DNA of 64,000 nucleotides from an uncultured Candidatus Saccharibacteria bacterium (GCA_964357635.1 CAYHLZ010000001.1:198674-262673); one strand, 5' to 3'. Shown: positions 10,401 to 42,486, counted from the stretch's first letter. The notes: generated from the letters alone by a model not told the origin. Translations and numbers: made by a program.

Positions 10401-13400
10401 TTCGAGAAGCCAGTTCTTGAAAAATCAGTGCCTGTTCAGAAGAAATACCAAATCTTTTAAGAGCATGTACGCTTTCTTGATTTGCTTTATCAATAATACT
10501 TACTGGGTTTTTTAAATTGCGATACTTTTTAATTACGCTGGTAAGATCCTCTAGGTTTGTTGAATAAGCATTAATAAAAATTATTTTTGTAGACTCATTT
10601 GGTTTTAGGTTTATTTTTTTCTGTAGGCTGAAGATGGAGTCTAGGGTGTAGTCCTTATCGTGACTCACACTTTCTTCGTGGTTAAAAATGTATGGAGAAA
10701 CAGTTGAACCTCTTCTTCCTAAAAACGATTCGCGAGAAGTATTGTATTTTATAACCTCATTTTTAACCTTATTATCAGCCATAAAATGAGCAAAATAGAA
10801 CTTTTTTGTTTTGTCAGGTAAATTATTTCTAGTGAAAACTAAAGATTTGTGTTCTTTGAGGAATTCTGATTTGATGAAAAGTCTTTGATATGCGGGATGT
10901 CCGATATCTTCTCCTTGTGAAGCCAGCACTACCTCTCCGTAACTAGAAACTTCAAAAGACTGTTGAAACTCATTTTGATTTGTTATTGTTAATTCTCTAA
11001 TCTCAACATTATCTTCTGGTGGTACAGAGATTTTAAGGATAGTGTCAATACCTTTGTTTGTTTGGTAAAACTCTGCTTTGTTCTCAGAAAAGATAACTTT
11101 ATAATTCTTCCCCAGAACTTTGGTTGGATGAAAAGTTGGTGACCACAAGCTGTTATCGTCAAGGTTACGAACATAAAGAAATGTGCCGGAACCCTCAAGA
11201 ACCGCGTCTTCTTTAAACCGTGTAAGTAGCAGATTATTGTACTTACTGTAACCACATCCAGTATTGCTTATTGACACTGAATAATTTCCATTAGAAAGAA
11301 AGGCAAACCTCGGCGTTTGGGTTCTCAGTGGAATATATTGTTTTACTAAGTGTCCAGAGTCAGTCGTATTTGAATAATCAATTAACAATCTTGATGTAAT
11401 TTTTGTCGGTTTGACTGGAGTTATGGCCCTAACCTTTTCTTCAAGCAATACTTCAACCGACGCTACTAGCGGATCTTCGTTAAAGAGTTTTCTTATTCGT
11501 TTGTCGTTTAGGGCGTTATTAAGATTACTCATAATAAATCCTTGGTGGTGTGCATAGTAAACCTTAGTAGCTACCCCACCCCTCTTTCTTTCCTTACTGG
11601 GCGTGTAATCAATAGCATCATAAAAACCGTAGCTACTGACCCCGCCTTGAAACATAAGTTTCTCTAAATTTTTTATTGAATTCTTAGGTTCAAATAAAAG
11701 TGACAGTACTGTTGTATATGGTGCTACCACTAGATAGTCGCCCAGACTTCTTTTAAGCCCGATATTTGGAACACCAAATGTTTGATACTCGTAATTCTTG
11801 TTTGCATTTAAGAGGTTATAAGCAGACTCGCCCATCCCCCAAGGGATGCCATATTTTTTAGCGTAACTAATATGAGCTTTTACGGCGGCCCTAGCATTTT
11901 TCCCCAAAAGACTTTCGTTGGTAACATCTAGGAAAATTAAAGAAGTTACATGTTCAAACAGTGATCCGCCCCACGAATAAAGAACCGGATTACTTCCAGA
12001 TTTAACAAACTTTCTGTTCAAGTGGAACCAGTGCTTCTTGGGTGCTTGATTTTTTAGTACCGCAATAAAACTTATGATATTGGTTTCTGAAGCAAGGAAA
12101 TCATAATAAGAACTGTCAATCTTATTAAATGTTGCATTGTAACCTATGTGGAAGAGTCCTCTTTCTTTGTTATATAGAAATCTAAAATCTGTTTCTTCAA
12201 AGATTTTATCGCACTGAACCACTAGTTTGTTGTAACTGTCAAAAAGTTTTGATGCGTTTTGTTCAGAAATCTCTACAATTTCAAGGATTCCCAAAAACCA
12301 AGTACGCACACTTTCTTTGTCTGTTTCTTCCAGAGAATAGCTTTCAATTTCAACTTCAATATCTAAATCCCGCACTGCCAAACTTAGTCTGGATTCTTTT
12401 AAGTCTAGTAGTGTGGGACACTGATTGAGTAAATGGAGAAGCTTCTCATATTTAATAGAAAAGTTTTTATAGCGTTTTAATTTATGAATAGCCGGAAAAT
12501 CGGAAACAATCTTAGAAAACGAAAATAAGTCTCTTGTTTCTTTCCTATATAGACTAATCAGGTTCTCAAGATTCTGAATCCAATAGTAAATATCCTGCAT
12601 GTTTTCTTTGCTATCTACGGCAACCATTTCGGTAATCAGCTTTTTTAACTCATGACTAGAATCTGATAATGAGAATAAAATTTCTTCAAATCCGGAGAGG
12701 GTTAGTTCAATATTGTGTTGCTTAAGACTATTTAAGGCTTTGCTGGAACTATTAATGATTTTGTTTAATTGTTCAACTTTTTCATTGTCATGTTTTTTTG
12801 TCTTGTCTCGCCTTATATTCTCTATAACAACGCTTGATTCTTTTGCAATAGAGACAAGAATATCGCTTAATCCTTGAACAACATTCTCTCCGATAGTCGG
12901 CTTTTTTAGAATATCTAAAATTCCCTGCTTCAAAGTAATAATTGACGCTAAAAAGTTGGCGCTATCAACACTGGAAACATATTGAGGGATAAGGGGTTTT
13001 AATAGTTTAATGTCATACCAGTTATAAAAATGACCTTGATAACGCTCAAGTTTGTTCAAGCTGTTGAATGTGTTGGTAAGTCTAGTTTTCAACTCGCTAA
13101 TTCCTATGTAACCAAAATCGTAAGCAGAAAGTAGAGAGAGAAGACCCATACCAATATTGGTTGGGGAGGTGGTGTTGTTTGAAGCTATAAGTGTTTTTTC
13201 TTCTTGAAAATGATCTGGTATTAACCAGTTATTTTCTGCGTTTGTAAATTCTAAGAAGTAACGGGAGCTTTTACATGCGATATGACGAAGAAGTTCCCTT
13301 TCCTTGGGCATAAAACTAATTGTGTCGGGTCTAGGACGACCCAGCCCATAGGCAATAAGAGGAGAGAGAATCCAAAGTACGCTCCAAATATATATGGGAA

Positions 13401-16260
13401 ATGCAGACGCATTAATGTTAATAAAAATTGAAATAAGCAATAATGACCCGGCTTGCGTAAACCACATAGTTGAATAAATCTCAAGTAAGGTACCTTTCAG
13501 TTTTTTTGCCACTTCCCCAGAACTTTGCCATCTAAGCATGTGCTTTCTGGTCAAATATTTATGGATAAAAGTGCTTACAATGGCACTAATGGCAACTCCA
13601 GCGTTATAAAAAAGAAACACACCACTTACCAGCACCTGCACCACAGCAAATACTGATTCGTTGATAAACGAACTAATTTTATTTTTCAAAGTGGAACTTC
13701 TTTCCCATTTAAGCAGTCCAATACAAACAGAAAATATAAATGGAGAACTCAAGATTATGATTATATAAACACTCCCCCAATACATGTTTGGACTAGATAA
13801 GCCCCATGACAGTAAGAGAAAAGCTAGTGAAACTATCGGAATAGAGCTTCTTCTTAGGTTATCGAAAATTTTCCACCTTGAAACAAAAGAAAATTCATTT
13901 TTTATTAAAGTGCCGTTACCGAGCCGGACTCTTGGAAAAAGCCAGTCAATAATTTGCCAATCGCCACGTGTCCACCGATGTAGACGTGAGACATATTCAT
14001 GATATTGAGAAGGAAAATCATCAGATAATTGGATGTCTGTAGCTAGTCCTGCTCGAGCATACAATCCCTCTAAGAGGTCATGACTAAGAACCGTATTGTC
14101 AGGAATCTTCCCTGCCATCGTTTTTTCAAAAATGTCTATATCATAGATACCCTTACCGAAAAATATTCCACTTTTAAACAAATCTTGATACACATCAGCC
14201 ACCACACTAGAATACGAGTCTATGCCAGAGGCGGAGGAAAAAAATTTAGAAAATAATGATTTGTTAGATGTTTTTAGTGACGTGGATACGCGAGGCTGGA
14301 TTATGCCATAACCACCACGTACAACATTTGTTTTCTCATCAAGGATAGCTCTATTGAGAGGATGTGCGATGCACCCAATGAGCTGACTTGCCGACTCTTT
14401 GGGCATTCGCGTGTCTTCATCTAGAGTTATTACATACTTAATGTTTCTAGGTAATTGAGAGAATTTATTGTTATCAATTATGTATGTGGTGTTTTGAGAC
14501 CCACGAATTAGCTGGTTAAACTCTCTTAATTTGCCTCTCTTTCTTTCCCAACCCATAAAGACGTTTTCTTTTGGGTTCCACAGGCGTTTCCTGTAAAATA
14601 GAAAAAACTTTCTTTCTCCGTTAGAGTATTTTTTATTTAGTTTATTAATCTCATCAGATACATAGATGGTTAGCCCTCTATCTTTCGGCATACTTTCCTC
14701 TAGTGCATCGGTAAAGTCCATCAATAATCCGAAAAAGATATTTTTGTCCTTATTACTTAGGTAATTTACTTCAAGTCGCCTTAATAGTTCGTTAATAGAA
14801 CTTATGTTTCTAAACATCCCCGACGTAACCACAAAGGTTCTAAATTCATCAGGTACTCCATTTTTAAAATCAAACTTAGGTAATGATTTTATCGGCAAAA
14901 AACTTACGATTAAAGAATTTAATAAGTTGGTACCCACTTCACTACTCAAAATAAAGATGAGGACAGCTGTTAGAGCCAAATACAGTCCGCTGGTATATTG
15001 AGCAACATAAAAGGAGACAAGTGCTGATATGCTAAGACAAACCAAAGAGATGCTAGTAAAATAAAATAAACTGGGATTATTGAGCAGTAAACGCCCATAT
15101 TTTTCAAAAAAAGTAGGTTTATAGCTAAACTTTTTTTCAAGTTCATCTCTGCCTTGCCCAATAAGATAGTGGCCGATATGTGCTTTTATAGAACCGTCAT
15201 CTTCAATCTGCCCACTTTCTGTTTTTTTACTGTGAGTAAGTTTAAGAGCATGTTTGGCAATTTCTGCTTCGTGTATACCAGTTACGTCAGCAACCCGAAC
15301 AACCGCATCTTTGTATAGGTTCTTGGTGCGATCATCAAGTGCCGTATAAACTCCAGCGGGATCATTGTGAAATATTTTATCAACCACGTTTACGTTACCC
15401 ACAAAGTCGCCCCACTGCACTTGGTTTAACCATCGCAAGCTCTCAAAAATATTTGATATCAAAACTCTTCTCTTATCTCGCTCATCACCTTCAATCTTGG
15501 CTAAATCCTTTATATCAATCCCCTGCTTTAATAGGTTTGACTTCAACCATTTGGTAACAGGGCGCGCTACGGGTTCGTAATGGGACAGTCTCTGCAGAAG
15601 ATAGAAGCCGAAATTTACAGGGATAATGTTGTATTTTGAAGTAAGTTCGTGAATAATCTCGGAGAATTGAGAGATGCGTTTTTGTTTAGTTTTTTTTATT
15701 ATTTGTTTAAACCAGAACTCTGCTTCATTAAACTCTATGGAAGAAAGAAGAATTCGTTCTATTAGATATTGAATGTTCTCCACCAGAATTATCTTTAAAA
15801 TAGTGGGAGTGGCATAGAGCTCTCGGAGAGTTAGTGGGGTGTGTTTCTGATAGGAGTTTATGAACTTCTCCATTACTTGTTTATCAATTTCGTTCTTGTT
15901 TGCCTTCAGTAATTCAGAAAAAATGAAGTAGGTTCTGGGAACAAAGTTTTGTCCACTCTTAGAAATCTGTGGTAATTTCAGAAATTCTTTTTTTACAATT
16001 CCATTTTCAATGTCAGAAATCGCATTTTCTATAATATAAAAATTATCAACCAACTCTGCCTCTTGAGTCAGGTAACTAGAACTGGTAATACTTTTTATAA
16101 AATTATTGTAGAGTTTGTAGGTACTGCGAACCTTTTTTTGTAAGTTATTAAAAAATGATTCAGCGGGTTTCGGTTTGGAAAAAAGAATGCCTCTTTTACT
16201 TAAATCTGAAGCAAGTTTATCAATTTTCTTAAGATTAACTGCTTCTAATAAATCGCTCAT
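7477..16260 (-). CDS. Giant membrane glycosyltransferase/glycoside phosphorylase, cyclic beta-1,2-glucan synthetase (NdvB/Cgs)-like, GT84 plus GH94
   Basis: At 2927 aa it has an N-terminal region with multiple TM helices flanking a GT domain carrying the ITLDEDTRMP DxD motif, then a large C-terminal GH94-like (cellobiose-phosphorylase-like) beta-sandwich plus (alpha/alpha)6 region. One uninterrupted ORF. Confidence 0.7.
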   Translation of the reverse strand: MSDLLEAVNLKKIDKLASDLSKRGILFSKPKPAESFFNNLQKKVRSTYKLYNNFIKSITSSSYLTQEAELVDNFYIIENAISDIENGIVKKEFLKLPQISKSGQNFVPRTYFIFSELLKANKNEIDKQVMEKFINSYQKHTPLTLRELYATPTILKIILVENIQYLIERILLSSIEFNEAEFWFKQIIKKTKQKRISQFSEIIHELTSKYNIIPVNFGFYLLQRLSHYEPVARPVTKWLKSNLLKQGIDIKDLAKIEGDERDKRRVLISNIFESLRWLNQVQWGDFVGNVNVVDKIFHNDPAGVYTALDDRTKNLYKDAVVRVADVTGIHEAEIAKHALKLTHSKKTESGQIEDDGSIKAHIGHYLIGQGRDELEKKFSYKPTFFEKYGRLLLNNPSLFYFTSISLVCLSISALVSFYVAQYTSGLYLALTAVLIFILSSEVGTNLLNSLIVSFLPIKSLPKFDFKNGVPDEFRTFVVTSGMFRNISSINELLRRLEVNYLSNKDKNIFFGLLMDFTDALEESMPKDRGLTIYVSDEINKLNKKYSNGERKFFLFYRKRLWNPKENVFMGWERKRGKLREFNQLIRGSQNTTYIIDNNKFSQLPRNIKYVITLDEDTRMPKESASQLIGCIAHPLNRAILDEKTNVVRGGYGIIQPRVSTSLKTSNKSLFSKFFSSASGIDSYSSVVADVYQDLFKSGIFFGKGIYDIDIFEKTMAGKIPDNTVLSHDLLEGLYARAGLATDIQLSDDFPSQYHEYVSRLHRWTRGDWQIIDWLFPRVRLGNGTLIKNEFSFVSRWKIFDNLRRSSIPIVSLAFLLLSWGLSSPNMYWGSVYIIIILSSPFIFSVCIGLLKWERSSTLKNKISSFINESVFAVVQVLVSGVFLFYNAGVAISAIVSTFIHKYLTRKHMLRWQSSGEVAKKLKGTLLEIYSTMWFTQAGSLLLISIFININASAFPIYIWSVLWILSPLIAYGLGRPRPDTISFMPKERELLRHIACKSSRYFLEFTNAENNWLIPDHFQEEKTLIASNNTTSPTNIGMGLLSLLSAYDFGYIGISELKTRLTNTFNSLNKLERYQGHFYNWYDIKLLKPLIPQYVSSVDSANFLASIITLKQGILDILKKPTIGENVVQGLSDILVSIAKESSVVIENIRRDKTKKHDNEKVEQLNKIINSSSKALNSLKQHNIELTLSGFEEILFSLSDSSHELKKLITEMVAVDSKENMQDIYYWIQNLENLISLYRKETRDLFSFSKIVSDFPAIHKLKRYKNFSIKYEKLLHLLNQCPTLLDLKESRLSLAVRDLDIEVEIESYSLEETDKESVRTWFLGILEIVEISEQNASKLFDSYNKLVVQCDKIFEETDFRFLYNKERGLFHIGYNATFNKIDSSYYDFLASETNIISFIAVLKNQAPKKHWFHLNRKFVKSGSNPVLYSWGGSLFEHVTSLIFLDVTNESLLGKNARAAVKAHISYAKKYGIPWGMGESAYNLLNANKNYEYQTFGVPNIGLKRSLGDYLVVAPYTTVLSLLFEPKNSIKNLEKLMFQGGVSSYGFYDAIDYTPSKERKRGGVATKVYYAHHQGFIMSNLNNALNDKRIRKLFNEDPLVASVEVLLEEKVRAITPVKPTKITSRLLIDYSNTTDSGHLVKQYIPLRTQTPRFAFLSNGNYSVSISNTGCGYSKYNNLLLTRFKEDAVLEGSGTFLYVRNLDDNSLWSPTFHPTKVLGKNYKVIFSENKAEFYQTNKGIDTILKISVPPEDNVEIRELTITNQNEFQQSFEVSSYGEVVLASQGEDIGHPAYQRLFIKSEFLKEHKSLVFTRNNLPDKTKKFYFAHFMADNKVKNEVIKYNTSRESFLGRRGSTVSPYIFNHEESVSHDKDYTLDSIFSLQKKINLKPNESTKIIFINAYSTNLEDLTSVIKKYRNLKNPVSIIDKANQESVHALKRFGISSEQALIFQELASRILAGGYLRDKPTNVSPAFPMIHSLWKYGISGDTPIIVVKIKDIEDINFIKNVLLCYRYLTYKGLNIDIVIYNEHPGGYIKTLHDEIDFIIRYNKLVENNHSNGKVFHLKTNFMSVEDRHSILFNASAIFDSEEGNLEYQIKTRNRKPNIKPLPNIFKSSKELPEKEVALKPSNSLSFYNGLGGFDETKKEYVMHLSQDLKTPASWVNVISNPQFGFMVSEGGSSHTWSVDSYDNRLTSWAADSLLDASGEILYIRDEKTGELWSPTPYPLGEDRSYTVKHGRGYSTFEHKRGSLEHKLLMFVPTTEKIKIFKLTIKNTGTETRNLSVTGFFELVLGVNYEQTKRSLITSTDNKTKAVITQNIVRNHFQGNLVFLDMNKGNYAISTSREEFFGRGGSVKSPEALKKEKLSNEIKYEPDHSVSLQTVVNLKSGEEKSVLILLGEGENIEEIRKLVTTYRKLPKITEALAQVERYWDQISRSITISTPDESLDIMFNDWILYQILSSRIFTKAGYSQPSGAFGFRDQLQDITAFIYSNPDLVRKVILDAAEHQFVEGDVQTWWHEHNNFGMRSVMSDHQLWLPHIVCSYVEITGDFSIFDERMPFLEGPALDFKNKKEWVGVPEITKGKYSLFEHCTRAIDKSLFFGEHGLPLIGKGDWNDGFNEVGINGKGESVWSGFFLYSILTRFSEVCTKLNDVEHLDKYRNIAESIKNALEIHGWDGSWYRRAYFDDGAPLGSHLNEEIKIDSITQSWAVLSRAGTEERAREAMDAVEKYLMPDKKLLKLLAPPIAKSSMRVGYTGDYPPGVRENGSQYNHAALWVAQAFATLGEGDKAKNIIDLINPINRSRSPEGVTQYRVEPYVVASDIYSKPSYEGRGGWTWYTGAAGLMYRTTLEFILGIKISKSKLIINPCIPKDWKEFKVSYFFKSTSYKITVKNPLGLSRGVKSIAVNGKMLDSKEIILSSDGKIYNVEVIMGD

Positions 16261-34178: not shown

Positions 34179-34216
34179 AAAAACCGCTCGATGAGAATCA
34201 AATTCTCATCGAGCGG
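34179..34216 (-). terminator. Intrinsic terminator: 15-bp perfect stem overlapping the stop of the 89-aa gene
   Basis: CCGCTCGATGAGAAT-caa-ATTCTCATCGAGCGG, followed on the minus strand by TTTTTCC. Confidence 0.7.
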
Positions 34217-34549: not shown

Positions 34550-34981
34550 CTACCAATTTTTACAACATTCAATAAGTTTTCTGCCTATCTCCTTCAGACG
34601 GTCATTTTTGTAAAAAAGATAAACGGTAAAAAATACAATCCACACCAAAATAATAATTCCCAAATCTCTTAACCATTCGCCGTTGACCAAAAGGACGAGA
34701 GAAATCGCCCAAAAAAGTGAAATAACAAATGGGAACTTGAAAATCTGCACCATGTCACTCTTACCGGAAAAGAAGTAGTACATTAAACCAACCGCGCTTC
34801 CACCTAAAAGAATGGCTAAAACAAGAGAATCTACTTCGGCGCCCGTAAAACGAAGAATTAGGAGCGTAAGCCAAGTAAGAGTAACGGAGGCGCAGAGAGC
34901 GCAAAAATCTTTCCTTGTTATTGTTCTGGCAATGAGTGAAAGAACGAAAAAACCCACCATTAAGATTAGAGCAAGCGTCAT
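34550..34981 (-). CDS. Integral membrane protein (4 TM)
   Basis: Hydrophobic profile; a 4-bp overlap with the upstream gene suggests an operon with the CxxC membrane protein. Confidence 0.4.
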   Translation of the reverse strand: MTLALILMVGFFVLSLIARTITRKDFCALCASVTLTWLTLLILRFTGAEVDSLVLAILLGGSAVGLMYYFFSGKSDMVQIFKFPFVISLFWAISLVLLVNGEWLRDLGIIILVWIVFFTVYLFYKNDRLKEIGRKLIECCKNW

Positions 34982-35496
34982 GACAAGAGTTCAACCACGA
35001 CTGACGCAACGACAAGAAGGAGGATGGCAATGGAAAGTCCTTGATACGGAAGAGTTTGTTTCCTTGTTCTGGTGATAAATTTGCTTATCGGATGAGCAAG
35101 AAACATGAGCACTGACCCTAAAAGCGTTCCTGCCAAAAACAGATTAACGGTATAGGTGTTGTGGAACAGTGTGCCGTACTCGCCTAAAATTTTTACATAA
35201 AGAGGTCCGTAGTCTCTGATGAGTGGCATTATGGGAATAATCGTTCCGAGAAATATCACTAGCCAGATTATTTGTGGCTGGTAAGGTAGGTACTCTTTCT
35301 TGGGAAGTTTGGAGAGCCAAGACGAGAGCGCCACCGCGAACCCTCCAATGAGAACTCCAACAACGACAGAAGAAATTCCGAGTGAAGTAGCCAGTATCGC
35401 CAGAGCCCCCGCCCCAACAGTACAGAGAGGACAATGTGCCAGTGCAAGCTTCGGGAAAAGGATTGCGACAGGTATCGTTAAGAGAGTTTTTTTCAT
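34978..35496 (-). CDS. Membrane protein with an N-terminal HCPLC (CxxC) motif
   Basis: Signal/TM followed by LALAHCPLCTVGAG, then 4-5 TM segments; it sits downstream of the csoR-DUF305-DUF1573 genes. Confidence 0.4.
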   Translation of the reverse strand: MKKTLLTIPVAILFPKLALAHCPLCTVGAGALAILATSLGISSVVVGVLIGGFAVALSSWLSKLPKKEYLPYQPQIIWLVIFLGTIIPIMPLIRDYGPLYVKILGEYGTLFHNTYTVNLFLAGTLLGSVLMFLAHPISKFITRTRKQTLPYQGLSIAILLLVVASVVVELLS

Positions 35497-35499
35497 CGA

Positions 35500-36018
35500 C
35501 TACAGTATAACCTCGGCCCTGATCTCAAGTTGGAGCGCTCCGCCATTCTCGTCCACAAGGTAAACATATCTTTCAATTACACCCACACCCGCCGGACCGT
35601 GTGCCGCAGGGTCAAAGACCACCTCAATAACTCTTTCTTCACCCACCTTCAGAATCTCATTTGCTTTTGGCACGCTGTTACCGTGTCCCGGCATGCCGAA
35701 AGGACCTCTTTTATTCTCACCGTTTATTATGTAGGCATTGGTACACATACAGGAAGTAACGACGCTGTCTACTCTGACATCTTGGTTACTCGTATTGGAA
35801 ACGGTGAAAGTCTTTTTTACCACACCGTCTTTCATGGCTATGGTACCGAAGTCGTATCTGGTTTCAGTTGCGCTTAATAGATTGTCAGAATTTACTTGAG
35901 CATCCGATGGTAAAACGGCGGTTTGATCGCCCTTGCCGAAGGAGAAAAGTCCGACAAAGAGCAGGGCTACAGCTGCTAGTGTTATAAGTGTCGTTTTCAT
36001 ATTACTTTGACCAAGCAT
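35500..36018 (-). CDS. DUF1573-like secreted protein
   Basis: Signal anchor; TFTVSNTSNQDVRV...VVTSCMCT motif typical of DUF1573 Ig-like proteins. Confidence 0.5.
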   Translation of the reverse strand: MLGQSNMKTTLITLAAVALLFVGLFSFGKGDQTAVLPSDAQVNSDNLLSATETRYDFGTIAMKDGVVKKTFTVSNTSNQDVRVDSVVTSCMCTNAYIINGENKRGPFGMPGHGNSVPKANEILKVGEERVIEVVFDPAAHGPAGVGVIERYVYLVDENGGALQLEIRAEVIL

Positions 36019-36598
36019 CGTACCAACCTCTCATCATCTGAATCTCACTTGACTGAGACGTGATGATGTTATCCGCAAGAGTTTTCATCTCCTCTCTGTC
36101 TGTACTTACTGCAAGCATCCTTGCCATCATAATCGCCATCTCGTGGTGTGGAATCATTTGAGATATGAACTCAAGGTCAAAATCTTCGGCCGCCCTAAGT
36201 TGACCCAAGTCTCCTTCCATACCCATCATACTCATACCCATACTGCCGTGACCCATCATCCCGCCCATGCCTGAAGAGTAGCTTGGTGTCCCGCCAAACC
36301 AATCCGCATACCACCCGCGCATATCTTTATTTTCTCTTTCCTGTGCCTCAATGATTCCCTGAGCGAGAGAAAGAATTTCTTGGCGCTTGGATCGCTCAAG
36401 TGCAAGTTTCGCCATGCTGATAGCTCCCTCGTGATGTGGAATCATTTCCTCTATGAAGTGCCTGTCAATATTTTGGCCCGTTATAATACTCGCCTGTCTC
36501 GTACCCATCATGGGGTAGGTGTTAAACCATGGTGCGATAAGAATACCTAAAATAACGCCCACAATTCCCGCTCCTAAATATTTTATGCTGTTGTCCAT
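36002..36598 (-). CDS. DUF305 family protein with a Met/Gly/His-rich linker (copper-resistance associated)
   Basis: Two DUF305 repeats (EEMIPHHEGAISMA and SQMIPHHEMAIMMA) separated by GMGGMMGHGSMGMSMMGMEG. Confidence 0.7.
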   Translation of the reverse strand: MDNSIKYLGAGIVGVILGILIAPWFNTYPMMGTRQASIITGQNIDRHFIEEMIPHHEGAISMAKLALERSKRQEILSLAQGIIEAQERENKDMRGWYADWFGGTPSYSSGMGGMMGHGSMGMSMMGMEGDLGQLRAAEDFDLEFISQMIPHHEMAIMMARMLAVSTDREEMKTLADNIITSQSSEIQMMRGWYDAWSK

Positions 36599-36599
36599 A

Positions 36600-36872
36600 T
36601 TATTTTTTCTTTTGGGAAACGTTATAAATTTTTAAAATTTCTCTGACCGCTTTGTCACCCTTGCCGTGCTTCATCTGGTGAGCCACGTGAGTCTCCAAGT
36701 GGTTCTGGAGCATCAGCGCCTCAAAGGCTCCCACGGCGCTTTTAATTGCTTGCGCTTGGGTGATGATGTCAACACAGTACTTCTCTTCCTCAACCATTCT
36801 TTTAACACCCCTCACTTGTCCCTCAACGCGGTTCAATCGGCTTTTTAATTTGTTTTTCATATCTGGTTTCAT
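36600..36872 (-). CDS. csoR: CsoR/RcnR-family metal-sensing transcriptional repressor
   Basis: 90 aa; RLNRVEGQVRGVKRMVEEEKYCVDIITQ...H...H pattern carrying the conserved Cys and His metal ligands. Its own promoter contains the operator palindrome. Confidence 0.8.
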   Translation of the reverse strand: MKPDMKNKLKSRLNRVEGQVRGVKRMVEEEKYCVDIITQAQAIKSAVGAFEALMLQNHLETHVAHQMKHGKGDKAVREILKIYNVSQKKK

Positions 36873-36883
36873 ACTTAAATAGT

Positions 36884-36904
36884 ATATACCCCCATCGGGT
36901 ATAT
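36884..36904 (-). promoter_or_regulatory. CsoR-type operator in the csoR promoter spacer (copy 1)
   Basis: Minus-strand sequence TTGCAA-TATACCCGATGGGGGTA-TATACT places the pseudo-palindrome ATATACCCGATGGGGGTATAT between -35 and -10, 12 bp upstream of the csoR ATG. Confidence 0.7.
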
Positions 36905-36948
36905 TGCAAGCAGTCTATAAAGACCTCTGTGTATTACTTTATAATTTC

Positions 36949-39075
36949 TCATGCTTTAACTAAGTCCCTCTCAACACGCTTCAGAAGCACCGCATTTGTA
37001 GCCACAATTATCGAAGAAATACTCATGAGAAGTGCCGCGAATTCCGGGCGGAGCATAATACCGAAGCTTGGATACAAGATTCCACCAGCTACTGGTATAG
37101 CTAGAATATTGTAGATTGAAGCCCAGAAAAGGTTTTGCTTCATCTTCCAAACTGTCGCCTTGCTTAAGGTTATTGCTCGAAGAATGTCTAACGGATCAGA
37201 TTTCATAAGGACAACCTTTGCTGTCTCAATCGCCACATCAGTACCTGCGCCAATTGCTATGCCAACATCGGCTTGAGCAAGCGCAGGAGCATCGTTGACA
37301 CCGTCACCGACCATGGCGGTAAATTTTCCTTCCTGCTGAAGTTTTTTGACGTAGTTGGCTTTATCCTCTGGCATCACTTCGGCAAACACTCTATCTATAC
37401 CGATCTGTTTCGCCACCCTTTCTGCCGTCGTCTTGTTGTCTCCGGTAATCATTACGGTTTCAATCCCAAGGTTCTTTAACTTTCTTACTGCTTCACTCGC
37501 ATTTTGCTTTATCGGATCGGCGGCTCCGATAACCGCTTTTACAGAACCGTCAATAGCCAATACCATGATGGTTTCTCCTCGGTCTAGGAACTCATTAATT
37601 TTTTGTTCCAACCCGCCAAGAACAATTTTATTGTCGCGCATGAGCTTCACTGTCCCGACAAGTATATTTTTATCGAGAACTGTCGCTTTTACTCCAAGTC
37701 CGGAAAGGTTCTCGAACCTTTCAACATTTTGAGGCAGTTCCAACTTTCGAGATTTAAGCTCATCAAGCACAGCTTGAGCTAAAGGATGAGATGATTTCGC
37801 TTCTGCTGCACCGACCAGTCGAAGCGCCTCTTCCTCACTAAAACCTTCCACAGTCGCTATATCCGTCACTTTGGGTTTTCCTAGAGTCAAGGTGCCTGTT
37901 TTGTCTAAGACGATTGCTTGAATTTTTGATACTTGTTCAAGGGTCGGAGCGTCCTTGATAAGAATATTGTGCTTTGCCCCCAAGCCGGTCCCAACTGCAA
38001 CGGCCGTTGGCGTAGCAAGTCCAAGAGCATCAGGACAAGCGATGACAACAGTAGCGATAGCAAAAGAGAGCGCGAGCATTATGGAGGACCCTACTACAAA
38101 AAACCAAATGCCAAAGACCAAAAGACCCGACCCTACCGCCGCAATAACGAGATACTTGGCAAACCTGTCAGCAATTTTTTGTCCTGGTGCCTTTGAGTTC
38201 TGCGCCTCTTCAACCATGCGGACAATTTGGGCGAGGGCGGTATCTTTGCCAATTTTTGTCGCCTTAAACCTTACCGAGCCGGCGGTGTTTATAGAGCCAC
38301 CAATTACCTGATCTCCATACTTTTTAGCGACTGGAAGCGACTCTCCGGTAACTAAAGACTCGTCAATGGCTGTTTCGCCGAGAATGATTTCACCGTCAAC
38401 CGGAACTTTGTCGCCCGGCTTAAGGATGACTATATCGCCAAGTTCTATCTCGGAAGTAGAAACGAGTGTTTCTATGCCATTCTTCAAGATTCTTGCTTGG
38501 GGTGGTACGAGATTAAAAAGTGCCTGCAAGGCGTCTGTTGTTCCGCGCCGAGATTTCATCTCCATCCAGTGACCGAACAGCACGAAAGTAATAAGCATCG
38601 CGGCCGCTTCATAGTATGAATCTGCGCCACCAGTCAAAGTCAAAAGAACGCTGAAACCGTATGCTGCCGTAATACCAACCGCAATAAGGACAGCCATGTT
38701 GAGGGTTTTATTTTTCAGGGCGAAGTAGGTTGAATATAGGAATATCCACCCGGAGTAGAAAAATACCGGCGTTGAGAGGATAAAGAGAAGCCACGGGAGC
38801 GGTATCGGAGACGGGAGATTAAGCTTCAAAAACTCTGTGCCTAAAGGTGAATACAGGATGATTGGAATTGTTAATATAAGCGAGAAGAAAAACTTATTCC
38901 GAATATCTATTTCCATGAGACGCGCCATCTCCCGACCAGCAAGACCGGTGTGATCCATACCCATCGTCATCGACATGCTCATTTTGAACTTCTTCCAAAA
39001 ATTCATTTTAGATACATTGCCCATCACATGTCCCGAGTGAACATGGTGTTTTTCGTTATGGTGATTGTGGTTCAT
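36949..39075 (-). CDS. P1B-type heavy-metal (probably copper) translocating ATPase; start placed at MNHNHH
   Basis: DKTGTLT, GDGVNDAPAL, TGES and a TM6 CPD(ALGLATP) motif. His-rich then Met-rich N-terminus (NHNHHNEKHHVHSGH...MSMSMTMGMDH). About 708 aa. Confidence 0.8.
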   Translation of the reverse strand: MNHNHHNEKHHVHSGHVMGNVSKMNFWKKFKMSMSMTMGMDHTGLAGREMARLMEIDIRNKFFFSLILTIPIILYSPLGTEFLKLNLPSPIPLPWLLFILSTPVFFYSGWIFLYSTYFALKNKTLNMAVLIAVGITAAYGFSVLLTLTGGADSYYEAAAMLITFVLFGHWMEMKSRRGTTDALQALFNLVPPQARILKNGIETLVSTSEIELGDIVILKPGDKVPVDGEIILGETAIDESLVTGESLPVAKKYGDQVIGGSINTAGSVRFKATKIGKDTALAQIVRMVEEAQNSKAPGQKIADRFAKYLVIAAVGSGLLVFGIWFFVVGSSIMLALSFAIATVVIACPDALGLATPTAVAVGTGLGAKHNILIKDAPTLEQVSKIQAIVLDKTGTLTLGKPKVTDIATVEGFSEEEALRLVGAAEAKSSHPLAQAVLDELKSRKLELPQNVERFENLSGLGVKATVLDKNILVGTVKLMRDNKIVLGGLEQKINEFLDRGETIMVLAIDGSVKAVIGAADPIKQNASEAVRKLKNLGIETVMITGDNKTTAERVAKQIGIDRVFAEVMPEDKANYVKKLQQEGKFTAMVGDGVNDAPALAQADVGIAIGAGTDVAIETAKVVLMKSDPLDILRAITLSKATVWKMKQNLFWASIYNILAIPVAGGILYPSFGIMLRPEFAALLMSISSIIVATNAVLLKRVERDLVKA

Positions 39076-39083
39076 GTATTTTT

Positions 39084-39542
39084 TTACTCCAAGTTCCATT
39101 TAAACAAACGCTCGGAGACTCCGCCAATGTTCTTGATTTTTAATTCAAGATAGGATGGCAGAGGATTTGTCGATTTAAATATCAAAACTCCTTCGCGATG
39201 ATGACCTCCTGGCTCTGACCCTTCCCATTTAACAGCCTTATATTCTTTGCCGTTGCCATCAACCAGTACGGCAATTTTTGCCATATCCTGATCCAGTTCA
39301 ACTGAATGTGTATCTAAAACAATATCAAATTTCCATTCTTTTGAATCAACAGATAAAACATATGGGGTAACTGTGACCACTACGTTTGCTTGATTATCGG
39401 TTCTTGATTCCCATTTTTGCTCTGTATCAGAAACCGAAGAATCACTTTGAGCCGGACTGGCGGCTGGCTTGGGATTATAGAAAAATAGCAATCCGACTAT
39501 AAACGCAAGCGCTAAAATGAATATTGATACGGTTTTATACAT
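39084..39542 (-). CDS. Secreted hypothetical protein (possible metal-binding beta-sandwich), upstream of the ATPase
   Basis: Signal anchor; GGHHREG motif; 152 aa. Confidence 0.35.
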   Translation of the reverse strand: MYKTVSIFILALAFIVGLLFFYNPKPAASPAQSDSSVSDTEQKWESRTDNQANVVVTVTPYVLSVDSKEWKFDIVLDTHSVELDQDMAKIAVLVDGNGKEYKAVKWEGSEPGGHHREGVLIFKSTNPLPSYLELKIKNIGGVSERLFKWNLE

Positions 39543-39981
39543 GATATCTTTTAAATTTAATAACTTTACTACCTATAAAAATAATGCCGAATAAGTTAAA
39601 GGCAATACCAATCCAGAAAATTTCAATCTGGTACTGGGCAATGATAACAAGAGCTCCAGCAATACCTAATATAGGCACAATATTGGCAAGATAGTGGGCA
39701 CAGCAAGAGACCATCGAGAGAGTAGAAGTTGTGCCTGTCACCGCTACTGTCTTATCTTTCATGATCATGTTACCCGTCTTCACCAAATACTTCAGGTATG
39801 AGTACAGCCCAATCTGAATGCCGAAGCCGACTGACAAACTCACAATAAAATACCAAAAATTGGAAAACTGGTTTTGAGCGAAGTCCCAACCGGAGACTAG
39901 CGTAAGAACGGTAAAATAGACACCAAGTAAAAGTCCGCTTGCCAGCACTCCGTACACAATTGCTTTGACTGAATTTCCCAT
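39535..39981 (-). CDS. Membrane protein with a CCAHY motif; the real start is probably the internal Met, while the ORF runs to 40206
   Basis: The first 75 codons of the long ORF are low-complexity and overlap the upstream small gene. From MGNSVKAIVYG onward there are 4 TM segments. Confidence 0.4.
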   Translation of the reverse strand: MGNSVKAIVYGVLASGLLLGVYFTVLTLVSGWDFAQNQFSNFWYFIVSLSVGFGIQIGLYSYLKYLVKTGNMIMKDKTVAVTGTTSTLSMVSCCAHYLANIVPILGIAGALVIIAQYQIEIFWIGIAFNLFGIIFIGSKVIKFKRYHV

Positions 39982-40024: not shown

Positions 40025-40240
40025 TTATAACCCCTCGCGCTCCAGTTGGCGACGATAGATAGCGCAGATGCCGGCAGAGATTGATATGAGTGTGAGAATG
40101 ATTGCGTCGTAATAGCAGTGCTGTTGCGTAAATCCAAAAATAGTTCCGTTCTCACCGGCAAGCCACGCTCCAATAAGTGCGAGCGCGCCCCAAATACCGG
40201 TAACAATGGATATCCAGTGAATGAATGATGATTTTTTCAT
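40025..40240 (-). CDS. Small 2-TM membrane protein (71 aa)
   Basis: Two hydrophobic helices and a conserved-looking QQHCYYD. Confidence 0.35.
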   Translation of the reverse strand: MKKSSFIHWISIVTGIWGALALIGAWLAGENGTIFGFTQQHCYYDAIILTLISISAGICAIYRRQLEREGL

Positions 40241-40265: not shown

Positions 40266-41225
40266 TTATATACCGCACCCGCCTTGTTGCCTCTTCGGTG
40301 TAACTGTTTCTCCCGTGCCAACCCCGCACCCGCCCTCTCCTCTTTGTTGCCCCGATTGGCTCACTTGGGCAACGATTCTTGCGTAACCTTGAGCGCTCGA
40401 ATAATCGGCACCAAGCACCTTTTGAGGACTTATATCTTTCCATTCGATTCCACTCTTTTCCATATAAGACCCAATAGTCACGTAGGTGTCCGGAAACCAA
40501 TAAGAATTAACGATGAGAGCAGCTTTCCACATATCCTCTTCGCTTGCGCCTTGTGAGGCCATAAGTTCAAGAAGTCCGAGCATAGCCATGCCGTGGTTAC
40601 AGTCGGGAAAATGAACAGAATTGGCGCAACAGGGTCTGTATATGCCACGCGAGATTCTCTCTACCAGAGACTGCTGTTCGGGCGTCAGATTAAAAAATGT
40701 ATGTTTGCTGTAGTGGTCCATGGGATCTCCTTTTGCGATAGTCCAGCCCCCCGTTGAAGCAAAATTTCCGGCTCCGCCGTAGGAAGGATTTGTCATCTCA
40801 CCAGTCTCTAGAATTGGATTTGAGTTCGCGAGCCCGAGTACCCAGAATAGATTCAGGAGATACCCGGCATTGTCCTGAGTAATTTTGAGCTGGCCGTTGT
40901 TCTGTCCGAGAAGCAGATTCTTGTATTCTTCGGTGAATGCGCCTCTTTTTTCGTAGATGGCCTTGAATTTGTCGGCATCAATTGCGCCTAGGCTTGCGAG
41001 CTTGGCGCCGAGATCACTCCAAGTAACAGGCAAAACAAATCCTTCAGGTGGTAGAACTTTTTTCTCTAATTCTCTGATTTGTCTTTGCTCTGATGCGCCA
41101 AGAGAGTCGGCTCTTTCTTGATTTATTATTTTTGAATCTGTTGTATAAATTAAGGCACTGGCAAGAATTGTTGCGGAAATGACTATGCTCGCCGGAATCA
41201 AATTGTTTCTCGAATCCAGTTTCAT
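40266..41225 (-). CDS. Membrane-anchored Cys/His-rich protein (candidate copper-binding), first gene of the operator-controlled ATPase operon
   Basis: N-terminal TM; PCCANSVHFPDCNHGMAM and C-terminal GGCGVGTG...GGCGI motifs. The promoter immediately upstream carries the operator palindrome. Confidence 0.4.
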   Translation of the reverse strand: MKLDSRNNLIPASIVISATILASALIYTTDSKIINQERADSLGASEQRQIRELEKKVLPPEGFVLPVTWSDLGAKLASLGAIDADKFKAIYEKRGAFTEEYKNLLLGQNNGQLKITQDNAGYLLNLFWVLGLANSNPILETGEMTNPSYGGAGNFASTGGWTIAKGDPMDHYSKHTFFNLTPEQQSLVERISRGIYRPCCANSVHFPDCNHGMAMLGLLELMASQGASEEDMWKAALIVNSYWFPDTYVTIGSYMEKSGIEWKDISPQKVLGADYSSAQGYARIVAQVSQSGQQRGEGGCGVGTGETVTPKRQQGGCGI

Positions 41226-41236
41226 ATATAAATAAC

Positions 41237-41257
41237 ATATACCCCCCTTAGGTATAT
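41237..41257 (-). promoter_or_regulatory. CsoR-type operator (copy 2) in the promoter of the ATPase operon
   Basis: Minus-strand sequence TTGCAA-TATACCTAAGGGGGGTA-TATGTT. Its 21-nt core ATATACCTAAGGGGGGTATAT matches copy 1. Confidence 0.65.
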
Positions 41258-41303
41258 TGCAAGTCCCCTATTAAAACTGGTGTGGATTACTTCTCCTACT
41301 TAA

Positions 41304-41453
41304 CTAAGATTTTTTAAAATCAGCCCAGAGAAACATTACGCCCAAAGCCAAGAAAAGACCCGCTTCCAACCAATTTTGTTTCTGAAAAGCTTCAATAAGG
41401 GCAAGGCCGAAAAATAAAACAAAGACAGCGAAATTTGCACCCAATTTATTCAT
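41304..41453 (-). CDS. Small hydrophobic protein (49 aa; MNKLGANFAVFVLFFGLALIEAF...); it is below the ORF-track length cutoff
   Basis: ATG to TAG, 150 nt, two hydrophobic segments. Found by manual translation of the minus strand. Confidence 0.3.
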   Translation of the reverse strand: MNKLGANFAVFVLFFGLALIEAFQKQNWLEAGLFLALGVMFLWADFKKS

Positions 41454-41504
41454 ATTTCAATTCTACCACTGAAAAAGAAGTGTCTTAGGTTTATTATTTA
41501 ATAC

Positions 41505-41533
41505 TTGACACTTTGCCTAGTATCTGCTATACT
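41505..41533 (+). promoter_or_regulatory. Sigma70-type promoter P1 (TTGACA-N17-TATACT) driving sRNA-like unit 1
   Basis: TTGACA at 41505-41510 and TATACT at 41528-41533, separated by a 17-nt spacer. Confidence 0.65.
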
Positions 41534-41539
41534 ACTCAT

Positions 41540-41728
41540 GTGGCTCTTTGGATTGCTCCTGGCGCTCGAAACATGTTAGACCTGTGGTTTGCAGACCGAA
41601 CCTTGGTCTGACAGGTTCCTCGATGATGTCGCCTTGAGGGACGACAAAGTCCGAGATAGCGCTTCGTTGAAGCTATACCGAGAACCATACTGGGCCCGGG
41701 GGCGAAAACTCCCGGGCTCTTTTTATTT
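41540..41728 (+). ncRNA. Candidate small non-coding RNA 1 (about 185 nt), family unknown
   Basis: Consensus promoter immediately upstream. An intrinsic terminator (GCCCGGGGG-cgaaaact-CCCGGGC then CTTTTTATTT) at 41692-41728. Several internal hairpins; no credible ORF. Confidence 0.5.
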
Positions 41729-41755
41729 GTTTGAAAAGTGCTTATTATTTGACAC

Positions 41756-41784
41756 TTGACACTTACTCTTGTGTCTGCTATACT
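41756..41784 (+). promoter_or_regulatory. Sigma70-type promoter P2, near-identical to P1
   Basis: TTGACA at 41756-41761 (a second overlapping TTGACA at 41749-41754) and TATACT at 41779-41784. The TCTGCTATACT block is shared with P1. Confidence 0.65.
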
Positions 41785-41790
41785 CCACAG

Positions 41791-42015
41791 TGGACTGGCT
41801 GAAAGGAGAGTGTCTTCAACAACGACCTGAATCGCTCGTCAAATCTTTATTTCAACACCAGGACCTGCATCATCATCACCGGCACTTCGACCGACGGCAT
41901 CACCGGCGGCGCGCCGCGCGACACGGCCGAGGGCACGAAGGAGTACTAGCTCCCGAGTGCACGGCCCCACGGGCCCGGGAAGGACTTCAAACTTCCCGGG
42001 CCTGTTTCATTTTTA
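41791..42015 (+). ncRNA. Candidate small non-coding RNA 2 (about 225 nt), with a GC-rich core, family unknown
   Basis: Promoter P2 upstream. Terminator GGCCCGGGAAG-gacttcaaa-CTTCCCGGGCC then TGTTTCATTTTT at 41972-42015. A convergent gene follows, so it is not a 5' leader. Confidence 0.5.
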
Positions 42016-42486
42016 AGAAATCTTCTCTGCAATCAATAATTCTTTTGTATAGATAGTGTCGGGAACATTTTCATATGGTTTTATCCCCTCTCCGATTGAT
42101 TCGGACACTTTGTGGTAAGTTACTTTTTGAACGAGTTTCCTCTGAAGCAGATAATTATTGAGCGTCGGACCGCTCGTCACTACAATATTGATGTCAGGTT
42201 CTATCGCCTCTTCGGGAGTGTTAACAACCTTGTAACCACTTTTTGGTTTAAAGTTTTTGTCTCTTGTAACTACAAATTTTTCTATCGGAAGCTCGTCAAA
42301 TTGCTTCCTTTCTTTATCATCATAAGTCTGTATCGCATCATAAGTCTTCCTGCCTATTAAGATGCGGTCATATTTCTTGAGGACATTAAGAGTGTGTGGC
42401 CAATAGGAGTCAGGGATAAAGTCTTCGCTCCCGTCTTTACGAGCAATATATCCGTCTTCTGAAATTACGTTATAGAGCGTAACCAT
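42013..42486 (-). CDS. Dihydrofolate reductase-like protein (RibD C-terminal/DHFR family)
   Basis: MVTLYNVISEDGYIARKDGSEDF...ILIGRKTYD...NIVVTSGPTLNNYLL pattern of the DHFR-like fold; 157 aa. Confidence 0.6.
   Translation of the reverse strand: MVTLYNVISEDGYIARKDGSEDFIPDSYWPHTLNVLKKYDRILIGRKTYDAIQTYDDKERKQFDELPIEKFVVTRDKNFKPKSGYKVVNTPEEAIEPDINIVVTSGPTLNNYLLQRKLVQKVTYHKVSESIGEGIKPYENVPDTIYTKELLIAEKIS

Follow-up and report, generated by a model that had tools for sequence, protein, structure and literature searches.

CsoR repressors and their operators

Type 2 CsoR sites, as defined by Tan, Vijgenboom and Worrall, consist of two short G/C tracts placed 2-4 nt apart, which occupy about 11 bp between AT-rich inverted repeats (PMC3902906). 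They contain a 5'-TAC-N9-GTA-3' dyad whose mutation abolishes binding, and the Streptomyces consensus is ATATACCCCTNAGGGGTATAT (PMC3902906). Two tetramers bind each operator via an RLXR motif in helix alpha1 of the protein (PMC3902906). The CstR persulfide sensors recognize an operator that is almost identical to the CsoR type (PMC8643695), and the DNA site alone therefore cannot identify the signal to which a given repressor responds. Among the proteins of this family, the cluster with an x-C-H-H ligand fingerprint (cluster 17) has been assigned to copper sensors by its CopA/CopZ genomic neighbourhood (PMC8643695). The CsoR of Thermus thermophilus HB8, the one characterized member with Cys-His-His as ligands, is described in PMC5057107 as poorly metal-selective, responding to Cu+, Cu2+, Zn2+ and Cd2+; its motif is written H-C-H-H there and x-C-H-H in PMC8643695.

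Regulation in the Patescibacteria (Candidate Phyla Radiation) is almost unstudied, and a literature search found no paper on CsoR in this phylum. The window analysed here, a 64-kb stretch of DNA from an uncultured Candidatus Saccharibacteria bacterium, contains two copies of a CsoR-type box, each set within a promoter, one ahead of a csoR gene and the other ahead of an operon that ends in a P1B-type ATPase gene. In the analysis, the source genome was classed as Patescibacteria of a Parcubacteria/Paceibacterota-like kind. The favoured reading, to which a probability of roughly 85% is given, is that both sites are CsoR-family operators, that they place two promoters (P1 and P2) in one regulon from which the repressor is likely released by Cu(I), and that the second site was acquired through a 4.2-kb insertion. 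This is a known kind of regulatory switch in a little-studied phylum, and it leaves knowledge of how CsoR acts unchanged. It adds a variant sensor fingerprint, a phylum-wide leaderless promoter-operator module and a history of insertion and duplication, which are of some value and unlikely to surprise a specialist.

Sequence and geometry of the two sites

The initial annotation read the minus strand as TTGCAA-17 nt-TATACT at the first site and TTGCAA-17 nt-TATGTT at the second, and both readings are exact at their coordinates (Table 1). P1, which scored 9/12 matches in the promoter scan, has the 17-nt spacer TATACCCGATGGGGGTA and is followed, after the 8-nt stretch ATTTAAGT, by the ATG (36872-36870) of a 90-aa ORF. 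In P2, the 17-nt spacer is TATACCTAAGGGGGGTA, and the 8-nt stretch ATTTATAT separates the -10 box from the ATG (41225-41223) of a 319-aa ORF. Each operator is a 21-bp, AT-flanked pseudo-palindrome of the form ATATACC-N7-GGTATAT; it takes up the whole spacer of a sigma-70-type promoter and reaches its -10 box.

The cores of the two sites, ATACCCGATGGGGGTAT in copy 1 and ATACCTAAGGGGGGTAT in copy 2, both contain the pattern ATACC-N4-GGGGGTAT with 0 mismatches. As the sites are of equal length and this one fixed-length pattern fits them both, the variable gap of three or four nucleotides originally proposed is unneeded. Copy 1 divides into ATATA-CCC-GAT-GGGGG-TATAT and copy 2 into ATATA-CC-TAA-GGGGGG-TATAT, so that in each the G/C tracts lie 3 nt apart and 11 bp separate the AT-rich arms. 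The dyad reads TAC-CCGATGGGG-GTA in copy 1 and TAC-CTAAGGGGG-GTA in copy 2. The proposal of a CsoR-type, G-tract-containing pseudo-palindrome is thus borne out by the published type 2 definition, to which both sites conform (PMC3902906). Both also match the Streptomyces lividans consensus ATATACCCCTNAGGGGTATAT and the Corynebacterium glutamicum box ATACCCCnnnGGGGTAT. The left C-tract of copy 2 is minimal or degenerate, being reduced to CC.

A role of the palindrome in RNA structure was considered and rejected, given that the predicted transcription start lies downstream of the site, that the centre varies without a compensatory pattern and that an Rfam search gave no match at the palindrome. 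Upstream of the -35 box, and within the duplicated block described below, is the DnaA-box-like word TCCACA, which occurs in 13 of 79 promoters where about 2 would be expected. Its enrichment is only modest, and it is found in both orientations and at variable distances; it is not put forward as a functional element.

Table 1. Coordinates of the promoters, operators, repeats and genes of the csoR locus, counted from the first letter of the window.
Feature	Position	Strand	Details	Basis
csoR promoter P1	36881..36909	-	-35 TTGCAA 36909-36904; 17-nt spacer; -10 TATACT 36886-36881	direct reading
P2, promoter of the p319-to-ATPase operon	41234..41262	-	-35 TTGCAA 41262-41257; 17-nt spacer; -10 TATGTT 41239-41234	direct reading, pattern match
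Operator copy 1, ATATACCCGATGGGGGTATAT, type 2 CsoR box (predicted)	36884..36904	-	core 36902-36886; TAC 36901-36899; GTA 36889-36887	
Operator copy 2, ATATACCTAAGGGGGGTATAT (predicted)	41237..41257	-	core 41255-41239; TAC 41254-41252; GTA 41242-41240	
Direct repeat, right copy, 118 nt	36847..36964	-	upstream element, promoter, operator, first ~9 codons	
Direct repeat, left copy, 109 nt	41200..41308	-	with the right copy flanks the ~4.2-kb block 41199-36965	
csoR, 90-aa CsoR/RcnR-family repressor	36600..36872	-	RLNR 12-15, Y32, C33, H58, H62, E78	PF02583, structure alignment
DUF305 / CopM-family metallochaperone, csoR operon gene 2	36002..36598	-	PF03713 E 2e-43; NF049983 CopM 109 bits vs cut-off 90	
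DUF1573 protein, csoR operon	35500-36018	-	remaining genes of the operon together span 34550..36018	ORF list, Pfam
172-aa membrane protein, csoR operon	34978-35496	-	HCPLC	
143-aa membrane protein, csoR operon	34550-34981	-		
p319 (319 aa), first P2 gene, predicted leaderless	40266..41225	-	membrane-anchored; invariant RPCC...FPDCNHGMAMLG motif; N-terminus MKLDSRNN	
p71, small two-TM protein, P2 operon	40025..40240	-	homologs beside csoR in two related loci	ORF list
p148, membrane protein, P2 operon	39535..39981	-	CC motif; internal ATG taken as start	
p152, N-terminally anchored protein, P2 operon	39084..39542	-		
P1B-type heavy-metal ATPase (716 aa), last P2 gene	36949..39099	-	TIGR01511 588 bits vs cut-off 397	

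Rarity and phylogenetic footprint

Within the 64 kb of the window, exact matches to ATACC-N4-GGGGGTAT are confined to copies 1 and 2, and allowing up to 2 mismatches adds only copy 1 itself, read on the opposite strand. When the -35 box is included, the resulting pattern of 22 specified bases, TTGCAATATACC-N4-GGGGGTATAT, has 2 occurrences in the window, while 100 dinucleotide-preserving shuffles yielded 0. When a weight matrix derived from 78 related sites was run over the window at a threshold of at least 14 bits, nothing beyond the two copies was found. Copy 1 scores 24 bits, and copy 2 about 15 bits, the lowest of all 85 sites that reach the threshold, whereas the csoR-proximal sites score no less than 18.5 bits, with a median of 30.

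The footprint was assessed in 80 csoR loci from different Patescibacteria species, whose CsoR proteins are 48-81% identical. In 78 of these loci, the 100 nt upstream of csoR contain a box with at most 1 mismatch in the ATACC/GGTAT arms, which agrees with the earlier placement of the operator between the -35 and -10 elements, in the 17-nt spacer of both window promoters. The distance from the end of the box to the csoR start codon is exactly 9 nt in 48 loci and 10-14 nt in another 23; in all 71 the box is placed between a TTGACA-like -35 element and a -10 box. The aligned consensus of the 78 csoR promoters is TTgaca-g-TATACCCCnnnGGGGTATAcT-N6-ATGAAA, with a variable centre and flanks that are not conserved. 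In the common geometry, the final three bases of the box are also the first three of the -10 element (TATACT in 36 loci). The small clade to which the window belongs (L001, L002 and L083) has the box 4 nt further upstream, entirely inside the spacer.

Exact ATACC-N7-GGTAT occurs at 81 sites in the 837 kb searched, 73 of them ahead of csoR and the rest mostly before ATPase, HMA or p319 genes. With the matrix, 85 sites score at least 14 bits, and 78 are csoR-proximal. Of the remaining seven, two are the window copies, two stand ahead of ATPase genes, one ahead of the gene for an HMA-domain ATPase and two ahead of small membrane ORFs. Occurrence of the motif at many unrelated loci, which the initial annotation had named as the observation that would speak against it, is not what is seen; few sites lie outside the csoR promoters, and nearly all of these are at metal genes.

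Predicted leaderless transcription

With 8 nt between the end of the -10 hexamer and the ATG in either copy, both transcripts are predicted to be leaderless or nearly so. Shine-Dalgarno-like motifs precede 4 of the 58 putative genes of the window, which is not above the level at control ATGs (10%). For 23 of the 58 genes, a TANNNT hexamer ends 5-9 nt ahead of the ATG, compared with 7.6% at control ATGs (p about 1e-11), in a test that uses the -10 element by itself; requiring a -35 match too gave only 3 genes. Eight of the 23 carry an extended TGn. On these counts, leaderless initiation is predicted to be the norm in the source genome. As such transcripts have no 5' UTR, the spacer and -10 region become the natural place for a repressor site. 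Literature searches on leaderless translation in Patescibacteria found nothing specific.

Gene content of the two operons

Downstream of csoR are genes for a CopM-family metallochaperone, a DUF1573 protein and two membrane proteins; homologs of the last three also come after csoR in six related contigs, L001, L002 and L083 among them. The P2 operon begins with p319, which has no known domain and belongs to a family restricted to Patescibacteria, with more than 7,500 members and without a known domain or fold. It continues with p71 and with p148 and p152, a neighbouring pair that is also kept in four other loci, and it ends with the ATPase gene. The ATPase has a His/Met-rich N-terminus and, by inspection, N-x6-YN-x4-P and M-x2-SS-x5-N motifs. 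No terminator-like hairpin was found on the minus strand between 41225 and 34550. Since none lies between the ATPase gene and P1, read-through from P2 may reach csoR, and the contribution of P1 to csoR expression may be below that of this read-through.

The repressor and its signal

The identification of the 90-aa protein as CsoR stands: it matches the repressor family PF02583 with 90.6 bits (cut-off 22.8; E 8.8e-26) over residues 6-82, and its best solved relatives in the alignment are the CsoRs 4M1P, 4ADZ, 2HH7 and 3AAI. In alignment to the solved structures, C33, H58 and H62 fall on the X, Y and Z ligand positions, giving an x-C-H-H fingerprint of the T. thermophilus type (3AAI) and not the x-C-H-C of Mycobacterium tuberculosis, Geobacillus and Streptomyces. 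The canonical Cu(I)-sensor fingerprint is absent, as the Z position is His62 and the protein contains a single Cys. C-H-H is present in 81 of 81 Patescibacteria proteins, and 76 of these have a single Cys. The second-shell residues Y32 and E78 align with Y35 and E81 of the M. tuberculosis protein, and the pattern YC-24-H-3-H-15-E is found in all 81. A second-shell Tyr/Glu pair has an established allosteric role in the CsoRs of M. tuberculosis and Bacillus subtilis. The DNA-contact motif RLXR is present as RLNR (residues 12-15); it is seemingly absent from most relatives, but many of these, on inspection, carry the basic patch in an RRLK form.

Because the fingerprint is x-C-H-H and not x-C-H-C, a copper signal has to be deduced from gene context. 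The neighbours of csoR are a TIGR01511 ATPase and CopM, and in this copper-efflux neighbourhood, as in the C-H-H ligands, the protein resembles the x-C-H-H type, a likeness of fingerprint and context. Copper is thus the most likely inducer, judged by the ATPase and CopM genes.

The principal competitor is that this CsoR-family protein does bind the two sites but answers to a signal other than Cu(I), such as Ni/Co (as RcnR and InrS do), Zn/Cd or a broad range of metals, and this is regarded as unlikely. Its attraction lies in the variant fingerprint, which is shared with the T. thermophilus protein whose response to Cu+, Cu2+, Zn2+ and Cd2+ is reported in PMC5057107, in weak matches to the NCBIfam RcnR (50 bits vs cut-off 138) and FrmR (34 bits vs cut-off 133) models, and in the ATPase, where the transmembrane motif is CPD (residues 355-357) in place of the usual CPC/CPH. 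CPD is common to the three closest relatives of the ATPase. Against this reading, 61 of the 64 ATPases encoded beside related csoR genes have CPH or CPC. Nickel or cobalt sensing of the RcnR kind is argued against by the lack of a His at residue 3 together with the type 2 site: the W-position His that RcnR requires is absent from the N-terminus (MKPD), where Pro occupies residue 3, a position that varies among relatives, and the operator is two-tract with TAC-N9-GTA, not the RcnR type 1 TACT-G6-N-AGTA. Copper is favoured over the other metals by an ATPase that scores above the copper-specific TIGR01511 cut-off and carries the YN and MxxSS motifs, by a CopM-family metallochaperone in the predicted csoR transcript and by the assignment of the x-C-H-H cluster to copper from its genomic neighbourhood (PMC8643695).

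Insertion of a gene block and the duplicated cassette

The two promoters lie in a direct repeat that flanks a block (41199-36965) comprising p319, p71, p148, p152 and the ATPase gene. Without gaps, the repeat covers 93 nt at 75% identity (36847-36939 vs 41200-41292); with a 9-nt indel, it extends over 36964-36847 and 41308-41200, from CTTAGTTAA to about nine codons into the coding sequence. It is longer than the operator first described, and about nine codons of coding sequence are included in it.

In the closest relatives, a single promoter is followed by csoR, the ATPase gene, DUF305, DUF411, a 172-aa gene and a 143-aa gene. Contig L083, whose CsoR is 94% identical, has p49, a single promoter cassette and csoR; in L083, L001 and L002 the sole csoR promoter is the ortholog of P1. 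Positions 3879-4158 of L083 align to 41479-41200 of the window (86%) and positions 4065-4409 to 36940-36596 (87%), the 94-nt overlap of the two alignments being the duplicated cassette. As L083 aligns to both junctions, the window has the structure of an L083-like locus interrupted by a block of about 4.2 kb. The entry of this block into the csoR promoter would be the event by which the second operator arose.

Compared segment by segment, the cassette copies are hybrid. Upstream of the -35 box, L083 is closer to copy 2 (25/30) than to copy 1 (18/30), whereas in the first 30 coding nucleotides it is closer to copy 1 (27/30) than to copy 2 (21/30). Homologs of p319 begin with MENE and an acidic tail, while the window p319 begins with MKLDSRNN, resembling the MKPDMKNK of CsoR, and the p319 N-terminus is accordingly read, from its sequence, as derived from the csoR cassette. 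Either of two origins, an in-situ duplication or the single-crossover integration of a circle with a related cassette, would fit.

Copy 2 could also be a decaying by-product of the insertion and duplication that is no longer effectively regulated by CsoR, leaving copy 1 as the only working site. That the score of copy 2 falls below every csoR-proximal site, that its left tract has shrunk and that identity between the non-orthologous halves of the cassette has fallen to 60-70% are all in keeping with such decay, and copy 2 may well bind weakly, having a CC-only left tract and the lowest score of the 85 sites. Yet the best-preserved part of the duplicate is the promoter-operator itself (-35, dyad, G-tract, AT flanks and -10-to-ATG spacing, 30/37 identical), and the flanking segments have diverged more, which argues that copy 2 is maintained by selection despite being the weakest site. 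In other species, asymmetric sites with a single G-tract work, and the operators of S. lividans differ in affinity by design (PMC3902906). Other Patescibacteria also have independent boxes before ATPase genes (in three loci). Loss of function at copy 2 is, on balance, considered quite improbable, and the reading of both sites as operators is retained.

Other readings of the sites

A sensor of something other than metal, either a CstR-type persulfide or an FrmR-type formaldehyde sensor, was suggested by the cst operator of Streptococcus mitis, ATATACCCTTATGGGGTATAT, which is nearly identical to the consensus obtained here (PMC8643695). CstR requires two Cys in an x-C-x-C dithiol arrangement; the window protein has only the one, as do 76 of its 81 relatives, the Y-position His is retained in all, and CstR chemistry is thereby excluded. 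FrmR requires Pro2 with Cys35 and is excluded by Lys at residue 2 of the MKPD N-terminus, residue 3 not being conserved. Genes for sulfurtransferases or formaldehyde detoxification are absent nearby, where the neighbours are a P1B ATPase and CopM, and non-metal sensing is therefore rated very improbable. The notion of a chance palindrome or generic promoter feature without a dedicated regulator, conceivable in an AT-rich genome where TATA-like words are common and -10 palindromes can arise by chance, has a negligible probability and is already refuted by the comparative data, as no shuffle reproduced the 22-base pattern and 78 of 80 species have the box together with csoR, with few sites elsewhere in 837 kb and nearly all of those at metal genes.

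Proposed mechanism

If both sites are CsoR-family operators, two apo-tetramers would clamp each of them through the TAC/GTA dyad and the arginine-rich patch of helix alpha1 (RLNR), by analogy with characterized CsoRs. At P1 and P2, the bound repressor would cover the spacer together with the edge of each -10 box, thereby excluding RNA polymerase. Coordination of a metal, most likely Cu(I), by Cys33, His58 and His62 would release the repressor, with the allosteric switch passing through the second-shell residues Tyr32 and Glu78.

Release of P1 is predicted to allow expression of csoR, copM (DUF305), the DUF1573 gene and the two membrane-protein genes, which would create negative autoregulation. 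The proposed autoregulation of csoR is supported by analogy with S. lividans and Bradyrhizobium, where this arrangement is documented (PMC3902906; PMC5057107). Release of P2 would allow expression of p319, p71, p148, p152 and the copper-type P1B ATPase, and read-through from P2 probably reaches csoR, in which case repressor on copy 1 might act as a roadblock. Derepression at copy 2, the weaker site, would be expected to need less metal. In terms of history, a block of about 4.2 kb is proposed to have inserted into an ancestral p49-promoter-csoR locus and to have duplicated the 109-118-nt cassette, which would have placed the incoming operon under CsoR control and given p319 its csoR-derived N-terminus.

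Implications

At this locus, a repressor comes together with an operator conserved across 78 of 80 species, a combination suited to direct in vitro testing. It illustrates how a repressor site can be fitted into the promoter spacer where a genome appears to dispense with 5' UTRs and Shine-Dalgarno sequences, and it offers a sequence-level example of how a regulon may grow when an inserted operon comes to be flanked by copies of a promoter/operator/start-codon cassette. In addition, it yields copper handling as a hypothesis for p319, p148/p152, and the DUF1573 and membrane proteins encoded downstream of csoR.

A broader proposition is put forward tentatively, with the odds considered to be against it. 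The leaderless promoter, operator and start codon may form an indivisible cassette of about 110 nt, at which recombination may generally recruit operons, and the p319 family may be a new extracytoplasmic component of copper handling, sensed via a phylum-wide clade of single-Cys (x-C-H-H) CsoR proteins. If so, recombination at the cassette would have captured the 4.2-kb block and made a csoR-p319 N-terminal chimera, and the p319 family, with its invariant Cys/His/Met motif, would be under metal control.

Comparison with known CsoR systems

In B. subtilis, the CsoR-copZA system described by Smaldone and Helmann in 2007 reportedly has an asymmetric G-tract pseudo-palindrome at the copZA promoter. 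The csoR gene of B. subtilis is not known to lie beside a duplicated cassette. The copZA operator belongs to the same TAC-N9-GTA type 2 class, according to PMC3902906.

The T. thermophilus HB8 CsoR (3AAI; Sakamoto et al. 2010) has Cys-His-His at X-Y-Z, as does the window protein, and an association with a copper ATPase, putative in the window, is shared. It differs in an extra N-terminal His, His5, to which PMC5057107 attributes a broader metal selectivity; a conserved His is lacking at this place in the window protein and its relatives. The two proteins have low sequence identity (E 7e-11). The C. glutamicum CsoR box, ATACCCCnnnGGGGTAT, as quoted in PMC5057107, is identical to the consensus of the 78 Patescibacteria promoters, although that organism belongs to another phylum and has a canonical C-H-C sensor.

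The csoR-cueA divergon of Bradyrhizobium liaoningense has the box TATACCC-N5-GGGTATA, which overlaps the -10 element, as is the case here (PMC5057107). Mapping showed that its csoR transcript starts at the A of the ATG and is leaderless by experiment (PMC5057107), whereas here it is predicted to be so from the DNA. In B. liaoningense, the repressor acts on its own gene and on that of a P1B ATPase (PMC5057107), and the window arrangement is predicted to be alike. Both the placement of the operator and the leaderless arrangement thus have an experimental precedent. The two loci differ in that B. liaoningense has one shared box in a bidirectional promoter and a C-H-C repressor, while the window has two co-directional copies 4.35 kb apart and a C-H-H protein.

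The S. lividans CsoR has three type 2 operators, at csoR, copZA1 and copZA2 (PMC3902906). Its sites share with those of the window ATATACCCC-N3-GGGGTATAT, the essential TAC-N9-GTA dyad and the AT-rich flanks. At the level of the regulon, the likeness extends to one autoregulatory site at csoR with the others at Cu-ATPase operons, to the RLXR motif and to unequal sites in one regulon, binding and copper transport being predicted in the present case. The S. lividans protein is of the x-C-H-C type with an N-terminal extension, in contrast to the minimal 90-aa x-C-H-H protein of the window. Unlike those of S. lividans, the window sites are asymmetric (CCC/GGGGG and CC/GGGGGG) and occur in a Patescibacteria host with predicted leaderless transcripts.

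Composition of the csoR operon and its surroundings

In the closest relatives of the CsoR-family repressor gene (loci L081, L082 and L084), a DUF411 gene lies between the DUF305 gene and the gene for the 172-aa membrane protein, while the csoR operon of the window carries a DUF1573 gene in this place. In addition, unlike in these three loci, no ATPase gene directly follows csoR in the window. In combination, these two differences show that the csoR operon was remodelled at more than one point. Just downstream of the operon, a perfect inverted repeat (Table) could serve as a terminator or a binding site.

Two of the genes behind the second operator copy, p148 and p152, contain no known domains. 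The first encodes a protein with four transmembrane segments and a VSCCAH motif, and the second an anchored protein. The genes are found side by side close to csoR in four further genomes, and in one of these (L028) the pair is located about 2.3 kb upstream of a CPD-type ATPase gene that is itself preceded by the operator.

The duplicated promoter-operator cassette also includes a DnaA-box-like word in both window copies. Of 79 csoR promoters, 13 carry this word, in either orientation, at a distance of 15-55 nt on the 5' side of the operator, where about two would be expected. The csoR loci with it include L001, L059, L075, L078 and L046.

Table. Coordinates of features in the window
Feature	Position	Strand	Description
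P1B ATPase CPD motif	residues 355-357 of 36949-39099	-	in place of CPC or CPH
Inverted repeat	34184-34216		perfect, 15 nt, 3-nt gap; CCGCTCGATGAGAAT / ATTCTCATCGAGCGG
p148 + p152	39084-39981	-	adjacent; also near csoR in L005, L025, L028, L079
DnaA-box-like word	36931-36940 and 41281-41292	-	TAATCCACA / TTATCCACA
Paired small-RNA candidates	41491-42016	+	promoter repeat, hairpin + U-run, RNAfold

Candidate small RNAs and translation starts

Two strong, nearly identical promoters (41505-41533 and 41756-41784, plus strand; TTGACA-17-TATACT with an extended TG) occur as a 48-nt repeat. They are followed by GC-rich transcripts of about 190 nt (41540-41728) and 225 nt (41791-42016), each ending in a strong hairpin and U-run, with RNAfold z-scores of -4.5 and -3.1, respectively. 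Both appear untranslated and are candidate unclassified small RNAs. Rfam matched neither to a family at its gathering threshold, and a cut-off of E<1 yielded nothing but noise. In the close relative with a single cassette (L083), only the promoter of the second candidate is shared.

Shine-Dalgarno signals are essentially absent from the genome (4 of 58 genes in the window, below the 10% background). A -10-like hexamer, often of the form TGnTAnAAT, is situated 5-9 nt before the ATG in about 40% of window genes, which implies widespread leaderless mRNAs. Separately, a single minus-strand ORF of 2,927 aa spans 7476-16260, very large given the small genome.

Metal site of the P1B ATPase

The transmembrane metal site of the window ATPase reads CPD in place of the usual CPC or CPH. 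This motif is retained in its three closest relatives, from L008 (85%), L049 (60%) and L028 (59%). The 64 csoR-adjoining ATPases of related loci include 42 with CPH and 19 with CPC. The His/Met-rich N-terminus of the window enzyme resembles that of CopB.
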